64,000 nt of DNA from an uncultured archaeon (lineage in GTDB: Archaea > Asgardarchaeota > Thorarchaeia > Thorarchaeales > Thorarchaeaceae), in assembly GCA_964558645.1 (NCBI GenBank), contig CAZLEV010000001.1, positions 381,568-445,567 on the forward strand. Direction: 5' to 3'. Below the pieces are notes generated by a model, which saw nothing but the letters and a program-made list of their open reading frames with translations, did no database searches and was not told the DNA's origin. A program made the translations under genes and the position numbers. Below, piece after piece: positions 31,492 to 51,360 of the stretch (its first letter is position 1; each line of letters begins with the position of its first letter).

Positions 31492-33669
31492 CTATGTTCT
31501 TGCCTCACGCCTCTTGAACCAGACCAGTATGAGAACCACCAACACGAAGGTGTACGGAACGATGAACATCATACTGTAGAGAGCATGTGCTCCATTCGAG
31601 GTGCCAGATGTGGGTTCGACAAGTGTCACCCATTCAGTCGTCGCAGAGTTGAGTCCTCTATCATAGGCCTGTACCATAAGAAGGACTCCATGTTCTGGCT
31701 CGAACGCACGGATGCTGAACTGGGTCGTCCACAGACTTCCGTTGTAGGTGCAGAGGAACTCGAGGGTTGTTTCATTAAGACTCACCACGGCCGTGACATT
31801 CTTCACCCCCGCAATGTCGTCCGATACTTCTGCCCACACGGAGAGGTTTCCACCGGCGAAGTCGTGAGGCTCATATCCCCAGTTCCATATTGTCGGCGGA
31901 AGGGTATCTGCTACCGAGAAAACCATGTCATGCTTTCTCTGCTTAGCCTGTTGAAGCGCATCGTAGCAGCCATGCCAGTCCATGGATTCGTATCTCTCAC
32001 GCGCCAGATCATAGTAGTCCATTACGTTGTTCATGATTTGGATGGTCTCGGGCTCTGCCCGGTTACTAATGGTGTCCCACGCGTCCAGGAAGTCCTGATA
32101 GTAATCATACTCCATCTGATCAAGATATGTTCCCTGCACCCAGTTCTGATCAAAACTAGACGTTCCATTGTGCATTCCAAAGTATCCCATGGGAGAGGAT
32201 GAGAAGTCCCCGACATAATGTCGATAGACCCACGTATGCCCCATTCCGATTGCATGCATGGTCTCGTGCATCTGTACGCCAGATACCCCCTCTCTCTTAG
32301 TTGTTCCATCATCACGGTAGTATCGCTCCCAAGACTTCCAGACACAAGTCTGTCCTCCGCCACCTAGCCCGGTGAATGATCCAGTGGGAGTGTACATGGT
32401 CATATTCTGTTTGATGAAGACAACTCCGAAGACGTTGATGTTCTCATCGAAGACATCTACATAGCGCCATCTCACATTTTGATAGATGTCTTCGAACAAA
32501 GCATACCCATCGACCCATGTGTGCCCGTTCTCAACATGGGAGTGCTCATCGAACAGACCCATTATGTAGGGAAGATGGATGTGATCTCTGAATTGCACAG
32601 TCGCAGTCCATGGTATGAACGGTAGGAGATCTGAAAGGAAATCTTCTAGCAGCTCTTCACTTGTGACCCATGTGAGGCTGTCTAGCGGGATTCCCTCCCT
32701 CGTGTCCATTGCTATCACAAGCGTGGTTAGACTGCCACTGTCAACAAATGCAGTGGGCTGGTGTTGGGATGGGAAGAAGACATACCTGACGATGTCACTC
32801 AGATAGTTCGCTAGATACGCGCTCAACTCCAATTGCCCTTCAGATGTTGAAAGGTCCAGTCCAGCCACAACATCCTCTAGGTCTTCGGTGCAGTGCCTTG
32901 GATGTTGATCATAGGGTGCTGTTCCCCACCAGATTCGGGCCCACCTCAGATACCACTGGTCAGCAGAGGGGTCGAGGACGAACACATTGCCCTTTCCACC
33001 GAAACCTGCGTACTGCAGTTTCACATCACGATTCAGCTCGTTGTCCCACTCGAGCCGCCACCAGTCAATCTCTTCACCACTGTCAGGATCCACAGGGTTG
33101 TAGTCGTACCAATGTTCAAGCTTGTGGTCTGGTGAATCGAACTCGGAGAAGTTGAACAGATAGAGATTGTAATGCAAACCACTCGAAACTACCAGCGGGT
33201 TTTCTATGAGCCATTCCTCTATCGGGTCTGCGTCTATGGACATTCCTGCGCGGGGGTAGAAGACTCTCTGAGGTACTTCTGGATTGGCCTTCTGATACTC
33301 CAAAGCCTCCTCATCCAGACTGGTTCCTGTGGTGCTACCATTGATGTGGTTCTCGAGCATGAGGTTTCTGATTGAATCAGTGTAGTCCGAGTTGGCGTAG
33401 AAGACCTCGTATTGTATGCTGTAGATTATATCACAAATCTCCGCGACATGCTCTCTCTGTGTCGGTAACCATTCGTAGAGAGCAGTGTCGTCAATGACGT
33501 CAGAATCGTAATTCACAAGGATGATATTTACAGTCCAGTCACGCTCTATCTCTTGCATGGGTACCGGGTCTTCCGAATGGGTCGAAGACGCCGGTGCCAC
33601 AAATAACCCACCTGCTACAGCAGATGCAAGGAGAACGGCTAGTACTACCGACGCGACGACGGACCGCAT
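31492..33669 (-). CDS. Secreted, membrane-anchored zinc metalloprotease (metzincin-like)
   Basis: Signal peptide, HETMHAIGMGH (HExxHxxGxxH), downstream SPMGY Met-turn, Ig-like module, C-terminal TM with KRR tail. Confidence 0.85.
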   Translation of the reverse strand: MRSVVASVVLAVLLASAVAGGLFVAPASSTHSEDPVPMQEIERDWTVNIILVNYDSDVIDDTALYEWLPTQREHVAEICDIIYSIQYEVFYANSDYTDSIRNLMLENHINGSTTGTSLDEEALEYQKANPEVPQRVFYPRAGMSIDADPIEEWLIENPLVVSSGLHYNLYLFNFSEFDSPDHKLEHWYDYNPVDPDSGEEIDWWRLEWDNELNRDVKLQYAGFGGKGNVFVLDPSADQWYLRWARIWWGTAPYDQHPRHCTEDLEDVVAGLDLSTSEGQLELSAYLANYLSDIVRYVFFPSQHQPTAFVDSGSLTTLVIAMDTREGIPLDSLTWVTSEELLEDFLSDLLPFIPWTATVQFRDHIHLPYIMGLFDEHSHVENGHTWVDGYALFEDIYQNVRWRYVDVFDENINVFGVVFIKQNMTMYTPTGSFTGLGGGGQTCVWKSWERYYRDDGTTKREGVSGVQMHETMHAIGMGHTWVYRHYVGDFSSSPMGYFGMHNGTSSFDQNWVQGTYLDQMEYDYYQDFLDAWDTISNRAEPETIQIMNNVMDYYDLARERYESMDWHGCYDALQQAKQRKHDMVFSVADTLPPTIWNWGYEPHDFAGGNLSVWAEVSDDIAGVKNVTAVVSLNETTLEFLCTYNGSLWTTQFSIRAFEPEHGVLLMVQAYDRGLNSATTEWVTLVEPTSGTSNGAHALYSMMFIVPYTFVLVVLILVWFKRREART

Positions 33670-45827: not shown

Positions 45828-46478
45828 CTACTTGATCGATGGTCCTGTGTCAGCGACCTGAAACCACTGGCCGCATTGTGGACAGTTGATGCCGCCTGAG
45901 GTGTCGAGTCGTGAAGGCCCAACCACGGACTGAGCTCCGCAATGCGGACACGTCGCATGCCTGTCATGGATTGATGCTAGTTCTTCCGACTCACCAGGCT
46001 CATCAGCAAATTCGACTGCGACGTTTCGTCCGATATAACCCCCGGCAAGTGCTAGGATGAAGAATGCCACGACAAATGAGCCTATGCCAAAAAGCATTGT
46101 AGATGCAAAGGCAATGACGACTAGATCGAGAACGGGGATTATCAGGAATTGCATGAATGTGAAGAGAACGCCCTGTCCAAGGAGGCTAGTGATGCTCTTC
46201 CTCACTCTTGTTTTCCAGACGAGCTCCGTTACGAAGGTGTTCAATCCACCGATTGTGATCAGATACCCGATGGTCATGACGAGCAACAGAATGAGCATCT
46301 CTGTCAAGGTACTCGTTATCATCATCATCAGGACGAAGTCCAATAGGTACACAAAAAGAAGCGATTGAATCGCAAATGGAATTCCGTGAATGAAGTACCT
46401 GGTCAGGTTGTCCCCACTTCGTTTCTCGTGAAGACTGGTCTGTTCAATTCCCCACCGTTCGTTCATGGTAGACATCAT
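45828..46478 (-). CDS. 4-TM membrane protein with C-terminal zinc ribbon
   Basis: Four hydrophobic helices followed by CPHCG...CPQCG. Start trimmed to ATG 46478. Confidence 0.8.
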   Translation of the reverse strand: MMSTMNERWGIEQTSLHEKRSGDNLTRYFIHGIPFAIQSLLFVYLLDFVLMMMITSTLTEMLILLLVMTIGYLITIGGLNTFVTELVWKTRVRKSITSLLGQGVLFTFMQFLIIPVLDLVVIAFASTMLFGIGSFVVAFFILALAGGYIGRNVAVEFADEPGESEELASIHDRHATCPHCGAQSVVGPSRLDTSGGINCPQCGQWFQVADTGPSIK

Positions 46479-46614
46479 TGAAACCTTAACATAAAAGAAT
46501 GAGCTCTTCTTGTCGCTCAACCAAAGAATTGGCCTCATCCCCCCCACTGGACACACATACGTTCGTTCCACCTCCTTGGTCGATAGCCCCGAAACAGACA
46601 CGAATGTTTTAAAT

Positions 46615-46630
46615 ACAAAGTGTTATAAAA
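46615..46630 (+). promoter_or_regulatory. Archaeal BRE/TATA promoter candidate
   Basis: ACAAAGTG followed by TTATAAAA (46623-30) in an AT-rich island. Predicted TSS ~46646-46655. Confidence 0.6.
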
Positions 46631-46645
46631 TAATAGTAACTCATA

Positions 46646-47004
46646 GCACGCTCAATGACTGGAGAAACGCGCCGGTGGCGAACCAGTAGCTTTAACTACA
46701 CGCGAGTCCCCGGTTATTTCCGGGCACACGAGGACGATGGGTCGACTGTGTACTTTGGCGTGCGGTGCCAGTCTTGCATAGGTTCTCAAAATAGGCCTGT
46801 GGAGTGCAACGTGCAATTACTATTAGGTGGTGGCGCGGCAAGCGTTGCATTGCCCGGACTTGTGTGCCCACCTCATTCTTCTGATAGCCTACTATTAACA
46901 CGTTGATAGAGCATGACTATAGGGTTCACTGGTGCGTGTGGATGCTCACGGTTTAGACGGGCCACGTCTAATACTCGAGCTGCTTTCTGCGTCAATGGCA
47001 GAGA
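46646..47004 (+). ncRNA. Candidate large structured non-coding RNA of unknown family
   Basis: Many helices with plus-strand G-U pairs: 46722-32/46859-69, 46804-12/46842-50, 46777-83/46795-801, 46953-59/46965-71, 46984-90/46998-47004, 46646-51/46934-39. No convincing protein. Confidence 0.45.
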
Positions 47005-47040
47005 TAAATAGGATTGGGGCACAATTTCCAGCTGAACAAC

Positions 47041-47607
47041 ATGAAGGGCAAGAAATCGTTTCACACTGGGATACCATTCCTGATGATGACACTTCTCATA
47101 GTTGTCGGTTTATTGCCTTTCACAACAGGAAAGCCTCTGGGTATCGACGCTGCCCACTCACCGAACAGACTATCGCAAGATACAATCCGTCCTGAGATCA
47201 GCAGTTGGGGGATTGAAGGGAGAGCATCTGCGGGAGAGAGTTTCGTGGCATGGGCCAATGTGACCGACTATCAATCAGCTGTCAGGAATGTGTCCTTGAT
47301 TCTGAACTCGGATAACGGAACTGTGAGAACCGTGGAGATCTATCCCCTGTTCGACAACGGCACTCTATACGTGAGGCAGATTCCCGGTCTCCCTGCAAAC
47401 CGAACATACCTGCTTCGTGTGCTTGCGTTTGATCTGGCCAACAACTCCGCCATAAGCTACTCGAGGACTATCAACAGGTATCCAAGTCCTGATCCCCCGA
47501 TAGACCCCAATGTCACCATGCCGGTTGTTGTGACCAGCAGTCTCGTCTTATTTGCGATCGTATCGCTGCTTGCTTATGTGTACGACAGGCGGCAACACAA
47601 TAGTTAG
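47041..47607 (+). CDS. Secreted, membrane-anchored protein with one Ig/FN3-like domain
   Basis: Signal peptide from ATG 47041, DTIRPEISSWG...WANVTD..SAVRNVS...AFDLANN, C-terminal TM with RR. Confidence 0.82.
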   Translation: MKGKKSFHTGIPFLMMTLLIVVGLLPFTTGKPLGIDAAHSPNRLSQDTIRPEISSWGIEGRASAGESFVAWANVTDYQSAVRNVSLILNSDNGTVRTVEIYPLFDNGTLYVRQIPGLPANRTYLLRVLAFDLANNSAISYSRTINRYPSPDPPIDPNVTMPVVVTSSLVLFAIVSLLAYVYDRRQHNS

Positions 47608-47700: not shown

Positions 47701-50469
47701 ATGCTGAGATATGCCTTCAAGCGGGTGATCCGTGGGTACCGACTGTTTGCCGCACTGACTGTAGGTGTACTCATCGCGACTACATTCTTCGCCAGTATGA
47801 TTATTTCAGCAGACGTTCTATCACGGGAGGCTCTTACTAGCGCCCTGGCTGAAATAGACTATGATGTACGTATCAATGCCAACAACATGACTTGGACTAA
47901 CACTCAGACCCAAGAACTGAATGAACTGCTTGAGGGCCTTCCCGAGGTATCAACTGCACACCGCTATGGTCGCCTGCCATTCACATTCAATGAGACCTTA
48001 GGGCAGTCATTCAATCTGATAGGACTCGAAAGCGACTCTACGGTGTGGAATACGTTAGAGCATGTGAATGGTAGCATTGGGCTTGGAGTGAACGAGACTT
48101 GGGTAGTTGCCAGTTCTGTGAATGCCTCGGTCTTTGATATTGGCGATATAGTGGAGGTCCCGATTAGATATAGGATCACCGAATTCCCGTTCATTGAAAC
48201 AGTTGCACTGAATCTCACAGTAGCAGGGTTTGTCGATATTCCTGAGCGGACTGCTCGGCTCTTGAACCCACCGAGAGCCATTGACCTAGGGTTTTTCTCA
48301 ATTGAGATTGGCAACTGGCGTGATTACAGCCTGCTTGTGGCCGACTGGACACTGACCTTTGAACCCATAGTCGACTGGTTTGGAGCACAAGAGAATGCAA
48401 CACAACTCGGCCTTACTCAGGGTTTCATGTGTCAATTGAACCGAGAGTTGGTCATCAATCCCTATGACTTGTCAGCCTCTTCAGCAAATGTGGGAAATGC
48501 CATTGCCAAGATCGAAGACCGGACTGTCGCCTACAACACACAGGTAACGAACCTTGTGGGGAGAACTCTTTCTCTATTGTCTTTGACATCAGGACTCCTT
48601 GTTCTTGCCTTTGTAAGCTTGGCTGCACCTGTGATATTCATGAGCTGGTACTCTTCAACGATGCTGAGTGATGTCAGCTACAATCTCAGACGACGTGAGT
48701 TTGGCCTCCTTCAGACCAAGGGCTTTCAGTCGAAGGTCATCAAACGGATGCTCGTTTTTGAGGGCCTGATAATCGGACTCATCGGAGGTATAGCAGGCCT
48801 CTCACTGGGGACCATCCTTGCACATGTGATTGTGGATGTGGCGCTGGACAATTTCCTTCTCGCCATGACAGGTAACTGGGTAAATGTCTTTGCTGTCATA
48901 GGTTTCGGACTATTCATCGCCTACTGGTCCGTACGCGGTCCGGCTGACAGAGCCTCGAAGCTCGAGCCTCTGGACACTCTCAAGCAGTATGTCTATGTTG
49001 AGGAGCAAAGGGAATACAAGCGACTATTGCCCACAATTGCACTGGTACTCGGTACATACAAGATTGTTGCATGGCTTCTGGGAATCAATATGCAGACTCT
49101 CCTTGGAGCCGCTGCTGGCTCTGGTCTAATTCTGATAATCGCCATAGCACTCTGGACTCCGGTGGATGCCTTTCTGAATTTCGCAGGTCCAATCATGTTT
49201 CTCTACGGTGTAACAAAGATTCTTCTGAGAGGGTCCCAGAAGTTCCAGCAGTACGTTGTAGAGGCAGGTAGAAGATTCTTCGGAGCCTTTGGAAACTTGG
49301 CCACGAGAAATGTCAAACGCAATCCAGTGAGAAATGCGGCACTTGTGTTTGTGGTTTCCCTGATCGTGTCTTATGGCCTATTCAGTGTAGGGAGCCTGTT
49401 CTCCGAGCAGGACCGACTCAATCGGACGAATCTCTATGAGGTTGGCTCAGATGTTGCCGCCGTATTCAGCGCAGGAACAGATCTCTCTGAGATCATCGAC
49501 GATATCAATGCGATTGATGGTGTTCACGCAACTACTGTCGAGTATCATGTGTCCATGAGTTCGACCCGTGGAACAGTAATGACGCGGGGGATATCGCCAG
49601 ACAACTGGACAGACGCTGCATTCTATGAAGAGAACTGGTTTTCAGGGGACACTGTGGAAGGCATGCTACAAGAATTCGCGGGGGCGAAGATCATCCTATC
49701 TGTTGCGGTTGCAAGGCAGCTTGAACTCCGAATCGGTAATCAGATCGCGCTACGTGCTCCAGACACTGGGACCTACCATCAGATGGAGATAGTCGGACTC
49801 ATCGGTTATGTTAGTCCCATTGAAGACGTTCTGGGACAATTTGCGTTCAGTGGCTCCTATCCTTCATACGTACCCGCAGGATTCCTCAAAGATATTGGCT
49901 TGTTGCAGTATGCAGAGAGTCACGTTCTTCTGAAGACGCAAGCGAGCGTGGACGGAACATATATCGAACAGCAGATTCGTGAGATTGCTCCGGCTGTTGC
50001 TTCAACTGATTCCATGACCTCGCGGACCACTGACGCCTCGGAGAATCTTTTTCAGCTTGGCGGCACCCGGGCACGATGGGTCGGCGTGGCATTTGGCGCA
50101 GTACTAGCCATACTAGGGACGGGACTTGTCGTGGGACTGACCTTGAAGGAGAAAGAATACGAGATCACTCTCCTCGCGGTCCGCGGCTTCACAAAACGAC
50201 AGGTGCTCAAGGTCTTGACTGCTGAGGTCATGGTGATGGTGCTCTTCTCCCTGATCTTAGGGATAGGTACTGGGTTTGTTCAGCTCTTTGGGGACATCGC
50301 GAATACTACTCAGAACGCACAGACGCTTGTCGTACCTCGAGTAGTTCTGAGTCCTGTATCAGTACTGAGTATGCTCGCCATAGGACTGGCAGTTGTGGTC
50401 TCGGCCCTTGTTCCGGTGGTCTGGGCAGCACGATTCAATGAACAAAAGGTGGACGTTCTAAGAGAGTAG
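47701..50469 (+). CDS. ABC transporter permease, MacB/FtsX (type VII) family, duplicated
   Basis: Two FtsX-like halves (RRREFGLLQTKG; KEYEITLLAVRG), each with a large extracytoplasmic loop. Confidence 0.9.
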   Translation: MLRYAFKRVIRGYRLFAALTVGVLIATTFFASMIISADVLSREALTSALAEIDYDVRINANNMTWTNTQTQELNELLEGLPEVSTAHRYGRLPFTFNETLGQSFNLIGLESDSTVWNTLEHVNGSIGLGVNETWVVASSVNASVFDIGDIVEVPIRYRITEFPFIETVALNLTVAGFVDIPERTARLLNPPRAIDLGFFSIEIGNWRDYSLLVADWTLTFEPIVDWFGAQENATQLGLTQGFMCQLNRELVINPYDLSASSANVGNAIAKIEDRTVAYNTQVTNLVGRTLSLLSLTSGLLVLAFVSLAAPVIFMSWYSSTMLSDVSYNLRRREFGLLQTKGFQSKVIKRMLVFEGLIIGLIGGIAGLSLGTILAHVIVDVALDNFLLAMTGNWVNVFAVIGFGLFIAYWSVRGPADRASKLEPLDTLKQYVYVEEQREYKRLLPTIALVLGTYKIVAWLLGINMQTLLGAAAGSGLILIIAIALWTPVDAFLNFAGPIMFLYGVTKILLRGSQKFQQYVVEAGRRFFGAFGNLATRNVKRNPVRNAALVFVVSLIVSYGLFSVGSLFSEQDRLNRTNLYEVGSDVAAVFSAGTDLSEIIDDINAIDGVHATTVEYHVSMSSTRGTVMTRGISPDNWTDAAFYEENWFSGDTVEGMLQEFAGAKIILSVAVARQLELRIGNQIALRAPDTGTYHQMEIVGLIGYVSPIEDVLGQFAFSGSYPSYVPAGFLKDIGLLQYAESHVLLKTQASVDGTYIEQQIREIAPAVASTDSMTSRTTDASENLFQLGGTRARWVGVAFGAVLAILGTGLVVGLTLKEKEYEITLLAVRGFTKRQVLKVLTAEVMVMVLFSLILGIGTGFVQLFGDIANTTQNAQTLVVPRVVLSPVSVLSMLAIGLAVVVSALVPVVWAARFNEQKVDVLRE

Positions 50470-51360
50470 ATGAATATGGTATCTTACATAGAAACGAAGG
50501 ACTTGGTTAAGGTCTATCGGCTTGGTGAAGTGGAAGTACAGGCCTTACGAGGGCTGTCCATGAAGATTGAGCAGGGCGAGATGGTTTCGATTGTCGGACC
50601 TAGTGGTTCAGGGAAGACTACGCTTCTCAACATCATAGGCGGGTTGACAGGTGCCACGGCAGGACAGAGTTGGGTTGCGGGTCGAGAAATCACGAATGCC
50701 AGTCCTGCCCAGCTTGGAATCATGCGCCAGAAGGTGGTCGGTCACATATTCCAGACGCTCAACCTCATCCCGACCCTTACCGCATATGAGAACGTGGAAC
50801 TTCCTATGCTTGCAGTCAAGACCCCTACCGGTGAACGAAAGATACGAGTGAAGGAGCTTCTTGAGACCGTGGGTCTAGGTCTGCGGATGAACCACAAACC
50901 GGACGAGCTCAGCGGTGGCGAGAAACAACGGGTGGCAATTGCTGCAGCTCTGGCCAACGACCCGCCAATCCTCATCTGTGACGAGCCTACTGGAGACCTC
51001 GACACGGATACTGGTGCCATGATAATCGAGTTTCTGCATAGAGTGAACAAGGAGATGGGTAAGACAATCATAATCGTGACCCACGACCCGGCTCAGGCCA
51101 GACAGACTGACAGAATCTACAGAATCATGGATGGCCGTATCATTTCGGTCCAGAAACCGAGCGAATCAGAAGAGGCAAATGCTGCGATGAGGGCGCAGAT
51201 GTACAAGGACAGACTGGCTGAAACCAAGGCAGAACTCACAGACCTCAACCTGATGTTTCGTGAACAGAAGATATCTCCTGAGAATTTCGCGGAGCGATAC
51301 CAGAATCTTACTCAGACGAGGCAATTCTTGGAGCAAGAGCTCCACAGAATGGGTTTCTAG
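50470..51360 (+). CDS. ABC transporter ATP-binding protein (LolD/MacB-like) with C-terminal helical extension
   Basis: GPSGSGKT, LSGGEKQR, ICDEPTGDLD, VTHD, plus ~65 extra C-terminal residues. Confidence 0.95.
   Translation: MNMVSYIETKDLVKVYRLGEVEVQALRGLSMKIEQGEMVSIVGPSGSGKTTLLNIIGGLTGATAGQSWVAGREITNASPAQLGIMRQKVVGHIFQTLNLIPTLTAYENVELPMLAVKTPTGERKIRVKELLETVGLGLRMNHKPDELSGGEKQRVAIAAALANDPPILICDEPTGDLDTDTGAMIIEFLHRVNKEMGKTIIIVTHDPAQARQTDRIYRIMDGRIISVQKPSESEEANAAMRAQMYKDRLAETKAELTDLNLMFREQKISPENFAERYQNLTQTRQFLEQELHRMGF

Follow-up and report, generated by a model that had tools for sequence, protein, structure and literature searches.

A gene for a structured RNA of about 150 nt occupies positions 46722-46872 of the forward strand in the 64,000-nucleotide stretch analysed here (the window; contig CAZLEV010000001.1 of assembly GCA_964558645.1), which comes from an uncultured archaeon of the family Thorarchaeaceae. 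By sequence and structure it is a new RNA family, and it is restricted to Thorarchaeota among the genomes searched. The reading that we favour, with a probability of about 0.6, is that of a stand-alone, stable structured small RNA that acts in trans, carries an end similar to the acceptor end of a tRNA and is specific to Thorarchaeota. A first-pass annotation made from the sequence alone had drawn a non-coding RNA of about 360 nt in this place. Since only 46722-46872 is conserved and the flanks contain no conserved structure, the true element is about 150 nt long rather than 360. The proposal of a novel stand-alone RNA is supported for the core, which has strong covariation and no Rfam match, and fails for the length and the ends.

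The RNA is 151 nt long in this genome, where it scores 138.8 bits (E 3.6e-34) with the covariance model, and about 150-165 nt long across relatives. It is closed by the helix P1, in which GGGCACACGAG (46722-46732) pairs with CTTGTGTGCCC (46859-46869). P1 has 11 bp here and 9-11 bp across copies; its four outermost pairs, GGGC/GCCC, show no or hardly any variation, whereas the remainder covaries (pairs 5-8 are GC in 41 copies and AU in 21, or CG in 48 and UA in 11, in the alignment of 67 copies). An asymmetric internal loop of variable sequence separates P1 from the 5-bp helix P2 (UGGGU, 46738-46742, with GCCCG, 46852-46856), which closes a four-way junction with linkers of 1, 3, 1 and 0 nt and the arms P3, P4 and P5. 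The P3 hairpin (46744-46773) has a nearly invariant loop CUUUGGCGUGCGG (46753-46765). The P4 hairpin (46777-46802) has a conserved A-rich loop CUCAAAAUAGG (46785-46795). P5 (46803-46851) is a long hairpin with a loop of about 30 nt, the 3' part of which is the invariant UAGGUGGUGGCGCGGCAAGCG (46824-46844); three genomes contain extra hairpins in this loop between UAGG and UGGCGCGGC. The nearly invariant loops can be summarised as CUUUGGCGUGCGG, CAAAAU and UAGGUGGUGGCGCGGCAAG. Directly 3' of P1 is the single-stranded trinucleotide ACC (46870-46872), invariant in all full-length copies. The helices of the central domain given in the first-pass annotation (P1 and the hairpins 46744-73, 46777-801 and 46804-50) are present as it described them; P2 was missing from its list. 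In one relative (G097; locus L202, G097:C268:1310-2253) the 3' half of the RNA is deleted between two TCATTA repeats, and this truncated copy is either a decaying gene or an assembly artefact.

The secondary structure, that is P1, the internal loop, P2 and the four-way junction with P3, P4 and P5, is established by covariation. RNAalifold predicted 45 pairs from 20 copies, 30 of them with compensatory changes. The covariance model R1 was built from this 20-copy alignment (A2), and 67 copies were then aligned to the model (A3). In A3, standard pairs fill 94.6% of the pair cells, compared to 31-45% when the 3' partners are slid by 1-3 columns. Double, compensatory changes are seen in 33 of the 44 pairs, namely in four of five pairs of P2 (which is paired in 96.7% of cases), eight of ten in P3, eight of nine in P4 and nine of ten in P5, and none of 500 shuffles reached the observed values. 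The covariation score is 0.555 versus 0.06-0.10 with slid partners. The column pairs with the highest mutual information are exactly the helices of the model, those of P3 ranking at the top. As to pseudoknots, mutual information over the unpaired columns gave only signals with few Watson-Crick pairs that looked like phylogeny; the candidate pairings CUUGC/GCAAG and GGUGG/CCACC involve invariant bases and are beyond the reach of covariation.

Many of the aligned pairs are mostly U-G or G-U, and this fixes the forward strand, as the first-pass annotation had argued from the single sequence. The folding energies point to the same strand. The minimum free energy of the core (46722-46872) has a z-score of -2.90 on the forward strand, where only one of 200 shuffles folds as well and the predicted fold reproduces the helices already drawn, and of +1.35 on the reverse strand. 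For the whole stretch considered earlier (46645-47010) the values are -1.85 and -0.12, respectively. On the forward strand the 5' flank (46645-46721) has z = -1.25 and the 3' flank (46873-47040) z = -0.94, no better than shuffles. Thus the folding signal sits in the core, and the expectation that the region folds better than shuffled sequence is borne out there and not in the flanks.

Comparison of the flanks gave the same result. For the 80 nt before the core, aligned from 54 genomes, RNAalifold predicted 0 pairs and no consensus structure. A hairpin around the upstream promoter box, suggested by stems in genus g6, was rejected, being paired in 53% of cases family-wide versus 35-45% for slid partners, again with 0 pairs from RNAalifold. 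The three hairpins proposed on the 3' side are disrupted even in the sister species (G001) with its 89% identity, and a conserved DNA box belonging to the next gene overlaps the last one. A switch had also been suggested in which CCAGT pairs with alternative partners. This pentanucleotide lies inside the promoter-like box CCAGTAGCTTTAAC (46683-46696), which reads CCGAA or CCACA in other genomes, and the switch was not confirmed as belonging to the RNA.

No known family accounts for the RNA. The search against Rfam 15 (4227 families) produced no match at the gathering scores over the whole window, and none at E<=10 over 46400-47250 on both strands. The genome has its own RNase P RNA gene (RF00373; C4:209083-209421, 153.9 bits) and a full-length gene for the RNA of the signal recognition particle (RF01857; C6:184495-184807, 102.5 bits), both on contigs other than that of the window (C1), and neither family matches in the window; these two identities had rightly been set aside before. 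tRNA and tmRNA were rejected, as ARAGORN finds none in the window, the loops are of 13, 6-8 and about 30 nt, and there is no T-loop sequence. The H/ACA small RNAs (sRNAs) were rejected as well, given the invariant ACC in place of ACA, the variable internal loop and the lack of a conserved GA/AG K-turn signature. A Y RNA bound in a Ro ribonucleoprotein was rejected on the protein side: the genome, 93% complete, has no match to TROVE (PF05731), whereas control genomes do. A T-box leader is contradicted by the absence both of an Rfam T-box match and of aminoacyl-tRNA synthetase or amino-acid genes downstream. Two of the invariant loops read UGG-N-GC-rich, and pairing of a tRNA end with them in the T-box manner was also considered and rejected: no tRNA end of the genome matches the extended complements of these two loops with UGGN, and the loop complements GCCGCGCCACCA or CCGCACGCCA occur in no tRNA or other genomic site outside the RNA gene itself. 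A full-text literature search found no description of such an RNA.

In its own genome the RNA is present in a single copy. BLASTN with 46600-47020 gave one match in each of 30 out of 36 genomes of the same family and no match in 24 genomes of other families; beyond the genus only about 46738-46885 can be aligned. The covariance model reached further and found one full-length copy in 68 of 86 genomes of the family, covering all 16 genera and 21 of the 23 high-quality genomes. In the only genome of the sister family the model finds no copy, not even upstream of its two FtsX homologues with the filters switched off, and 113 genomes from 22 other families of the phylum contain no model match at E<=1. 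An exact-pattern scan of the GTDB genomes returned, among the matches listed, mostly chance matches in high-GC bacteria, and of these listed matches only contigs labelled Thorarchaeota or Promethearchaeota fitted the model. This distribution supports a single-copy gene inherited vertically. In viral contigs two exact 19-mer matches were found, both inside coding regions at 13-17 bits and due to chance, and the pattern of the 3' end had none; a viral origin is thus unsupported. Some of the absences within the family are assembly breaks, as in G067 and G076, where the contigs end about 100 nt upstream of the downstream gene F1 described below.

The sole conserved block upstream of the RNA is GACC-R-N-AAG-S-K-W-T-W-A-M-C, represented here by CCAGTAGCTTTAAC at 46683-46696, the TATA part of which is centred about 29 nt upstream of the RNA's first G. 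A box within four mismatches of CCGAAAGCTATAAC occurs in 44 of 66 copies, compared to 5% of shuffled upstream regions. Most genera have its centre at -26 to -44 relative to the first G, and genus g3 has it at -76. Many tRNA genes of the same genome, as well as its RNase P RNA gene, carry a box of the same kind (CGAAA, 2-3 nt, TTWAWA) at -29 to -37, and thus 46683-46696 is likely to be the promoter of the RNA, consisting of a B recognition element (BRE) and a TATA box. The TATA box on which the first-pass annotation relied does exist (TTATAAAA, 46623-46630); it lies about 95 nt upstream of the conserved 5' end, and the proximal box fits the RNA better. More likely, the box at 46623 is one of the paired A/T boxes of a divergent intergenic region. 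Two A/T-rich boxes are seen in 46607-46636, GTTTTAAATAC (46607-46617) and TTATAAAATAATAG (46623-46636, including the TATA box just mentioned), and they may serve the divergent upstream gene as a divergent promoter pair, or a distal start.

On the other side, the invariant ACC is followed by a T- or pyrimidine-rich tract, here TCATTCTTCT (46873-46882), a likely archaeal termination signal. In the 65 copies compared, T makes up 59% and pyrimidines together 83% of the 12 nt that follow ACC, and a run of at least four T is present in 31 copies. Taken together, these signals suggest that the RNA is transcribed independently, from a promoter of its own to a terminator of its own. A salt-lake metatranscriptome contains a 185-nt contig of low depth that covers only 46730-46911 with four differences. 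It is weakly consistent with a 5' end near 46722, the strand and the true ends being beyond its reach, and the stretch outside this RNA-library contig is no evidence of silence. Most DNA sequencing runs contain only small shares of the stretch.

The RNA ends in the same way as some tRNAs of its own genome. The tRNA-Val, tRNA-Met and tRNA-Pro genes start with GGGCC or GGGTC and finish with GGCCCACCA, and the P1-ACC end, GGGC.../...GCCC-A-CC, matches their acceptor ends except for the final A. Thus it is likely that this end is handled by the tRNA machinery or recognised like a tRNA end. ARAGORN detected only 21 tRNAs in the genome, and many others probably contain introns and were missed; a tRNA-Sec gene is present.

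The genes downstream of the RNA are F1 (47041-47607, forward strand), which encodes 188 amino acids with a signal-peptide-like start and belongs to no Pfam family, an FtsX-type (MacB-type) permease of 922 amino acids (47701-50469, forward strand) and, directly after it, an ATP-binding cassette (ABC) ATPase (50470-51360, forward strand). F1 follows the RNA directly in about 26 genomes, lies 0.5-7.3 kb further on the same strand in about 20 more, and in one genome is 13 kb away on the other strand. In genus g3 the immediate downstream neighbour of the RNA is the FtsX permease, or an Fe-S protein with FtsX behind it. F1 has its own promoter-like box of 26 nt (46988-47012), situated 25-35 nt before the ATG, with the consensus TGCGTSAATGRSNGAGMTAAWTARGG; it reads TGCGTCAATGGCAGAGATAAATAGG here and TGCGTGAATGAGCGAGCTAATTAAGG in other genera, and is retained even at distances of 0.5-7 kb between F1 and the RNA. 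It resembles a TATA box preceded by a regulator site, as for a leaderless mRNA. A domain related to F1 (E 1.3e-6) is encoded on the reverse strand at 31621-31911 of the window (G000:C1:413188-413478), inside a 726-aa open frame, and similar paralogues of 720-770 amino acids exist in most relatives. F1 could thus represent a stand-alone copy of a domain found in larger proteins.

The gene immediately downstream of the RNA varies and may be F1 or a gene encoding an Fe-S protein, a TPR protein, a Zn-ribbon protein, an MFS transporter, peptidase M3, LRR proteins, a NosD-like protein or a Ras-like GTPase. In genus g6 the RNA is intact and genes unrelated to the operon come after it: peptidase M3; an MFS transporter and peptidase M3; LRR proteins; a NosD-like beta-helix protein; or a Ras-like GTPase. 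A TATA-like box of its own precedes the first inserted gene in at least two g6 genomes. Of the seven g6 loci examined, five show a 25-49-nt copy of the 3' end of the RNA behind the inserted genes, with F1 after it; such an arrangement was noted at L220 (G090:C67:1200-4400), L222, L223, L224 and L225. No integrase was found among the genes inserted after the RNA. Insertions with a duplicated 3' end resemble, by analogy, those occurring at tRNA genes. At loci separated from F1 the RNA is intact, with 124-135 bits, and thus it was kept after losing contact with F1.

Several observations weigh against a stand-alone RNA with a tRNA-like end. In all 65 copies ACC is followed by T or C and never by A, although 20 of the 21 tRNA genes found by ARAGORN encode the 3' CCA (e.g. 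C4:168976-169066), and the likeness to a tRNA end rests on four base pairs and ACC. In this genome the T tract is weak, and the metatranscriptome contig extends 39 nt beyond ACC. Both A/T boxes recur in several genera, about 125 and 95 nt before the RNA, so that a longer precursor is possible. In nearly all genomes with both on a single contig, the RNA precedes the F1-FtsX-ABC operon in the same orientation. Finally, there are joint losses. In G026, a genome assembled as a single contig, one deletion removed the RNA and the 5' part of F1 (L228, G026:C1:94500-98400), and in two good genomes, G010 and G011, RNA, F1 and permease were all not found. These losses hint at a functional tie to the operon, and also mean that the RNA is dispensable.

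The co-orientation and the joint losses speak for the main rival explanation, which we consider unlikely: the RNA would be a cis-regulatory leader, an aptamer similar to those of riboswitches, sensing a ligand and controlling read-through into the downstream genes, ancestrally the F1-FtsX(MacB-type)-ABC operon. A very long leader of this operon had been one of the two initial proposals. The leader would explain why the RNA precedes F1 on the same strand in about 46 genomes, directly in about 26 of them, why in genus g3 it is next to the permease or separated from it by the Fe-S protein gene, and why it disappeared together with F1 from G026, G010 and G011. The architecture, a multi-helix junction with invariant unpaired bases and a P1 helix followed by a U-rich tract, is also that of an aptamer. 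On the other hand, F1 retains its conserved TATA-type box 25-35 nt before the ATG with or without an adjacent RNA, and the RNA itself is preceded by a promoter box of the stable-RNA type. In about 20 genomes 0.5-7.3 kb separate an intact RNA from F1, and the inserted genes examined in genus g6 are functionally unrelated, the first of them having a promoter-like box in at least two genomes. No conserved alternative pairing that could serve as an expression platform is seen in the flanks. Moreover, G026 keeps the FtsX permease intact (64% identical) without the RNA. The initial proposal of a leader is weakened mainly by the operon's own box and by the unrelated genes in between.

The tRNA-like end may also be taken further. 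A reading to which we give little credence, less than to the leader, is that the RNA mimics a tRNA end: P1-ACC would be processed by RNase P or by 3' trimming and completed by the CCA-adding enzyme, and the RNA would be a substrate, decoy or guide for an enzyme with specificity for tRNA acceptor ends. This would account for the invariance, or near invariance, of GGGC/GCCC, A and CC while the rest of P1 covaries, for the same end in tRNA-Val, tRNA-Met and tRNA-Pro of the genome, for the tRNA-like topology of the junction with its linkers of 1, 3, 1 and 0 nt, and for the insertion hot spot at the 3' end of the gene, as at tRNA genes. The variable distance of the promoter box (-26 to -44, and -76 in g3) fits the removal of a variable 5' leader. 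However, ARAGORN finds no tRNA here, T-loop and D-loop sequences and a 7-nt anticodon loop are missing, the never-encoded A after ACC contrasts with the tRNA genes of the genome, and the UGGN loop motifs have no extended complement at any tRNA 3' end. Highly improbable is the RNA of about 360 nt as first drawn, from about 46650, behind the TATA box at 46623, to about 47004. The TATA-like box 46623-46636, which recurs about 95 nt before the core in several genera, and the z-score of -1.85 for the whole 366 nt, are in its favour; it is contradicted by flanks that are neither conserved in structure nor folded better than shuffles, by the hairpins broken in the sister species, by the conserved promoter-like box of the next gene at 46988-47012, and by the start of the metatranscriptome contig only at about 46727. 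Finally, the conservation could be due to the 83-aa open reading frame 46655-46906, encoding a leaderless small protein, as its ATG at 46655 is about 25 nt after the TATA box at 46623. This can practically be dismissed: the frame is interrupted by TAA at codon 4 in the sister species and the indels among copies are not multiples of three, which together refute it, the substitutions in helices are compensatory with no codon periodicity, and there is no Pfam match.

Under the favoured explanation, a stand-alone RNA acting in trans, transcription would start from the BRE/TATA box at 46683-46696, similar in type and spacing to the tRNA promoters of the genome, and the transcript would end in the T-rich tract after the invariant ACC. 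The compact fold would act in trans, the nearly invariant loops and junction bases forming a tertiary core. The loops (CUUUGGCGUGCGG, CAAAAU and UAGGUGGUGGCGCGGCAAG) together with the junction bases could provide a binding surface for a protein partner or a ligand, and the P1-ACC end may be handled or recognised like the end of a tRNA. As to function, one tentative possibility is a new class of functional RNA of a single Asgard lineage with tRNA-like maturation: a subunit of a ribonucleoprotein, a ribozyme or a ligand sensor acting in trans.

Asgard archaea are the closest prokaryotic relatives of eukaryotes. To our knowledge, almost nothing has been described of their lineage-specific non-coding RNAs, and we know of very few riboswitch-like RNAs in archaea. 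The covariation support for the Thorarchaeota RNA is as strong as that for accepted RNA families, the conservation of its junction and loops is unusually good, and the alignment A3 with the model R1 can form the basis for a new Rfam family. Should it turn out to be a part of a new ribonucleoprotein, or a catalytic or sensing RNA, the short list of complex RNAs in prokaryotes would grow by a class. As no more than a regulator of the ABC operon, it would still be among the very few riboswitch-like archaeal RNAs.

One of the closest known systems is tRNA. Both have a terminal helix that begins with GGGC/GCCC and continues into an unpaired A and then CC, and in both the short-linkered four-way junction has its last arm directly on the closing helix: P5 joins P2 without a linker here, and the T arm joins the acceptor stem in tRNA. 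In both, a BRE/TATA box precedes the first base by about 30 nt, a T-rich tract lies behind the gene, and gene insertions duplicate the gene's 3' end. However, the RNA is twice as long, its junction is set on an extra stalk of 9-11 bp with an internal loop, and it has no D-loop or T-loop sequences, no 7-nt anticodon loop and no encoded final A of CCA. The archaeal H/ACA sRNAs are built alike, with an internal loop between a lower stem of about 9-11 bp and an upper stem, and with three nucleotides directly behind the lower stem of which the first is A. They differ in having ACA instead of ACC; here the would-be guide pocket is the least conserved part, there is no K-turn, and a four-way junction lies above. 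Riboswitch aptamers (Mn2+ yybP-ykoY, NiCo, cobalamin) are similar in that P1 closes a junction with invariant unpaired nucleotides and is followed by a U-rich tract, the RNA often preceding a transporter operon. In contrast to them, the Thorarchaeota RNA is followed by genes of incoherent function, F1 and some of the inserted genes having their own promoter-like boxes, and it has neither a conserved expression platform nor an Rfam match. The raiA motif RNA and the HgcC-type archaeal sRNAs are comparable orphan stand-alone structured RNAs of prokaryotes. Like the Thorarchaeota RNA, each is a single well-conserved intergenic RNA with its own promoter and terminator signals and invariant loops and junctions; unlike them, the Thorarchaeota RNA matches none of the Rfam 15 families and is confined to one class of Asgard archaea.

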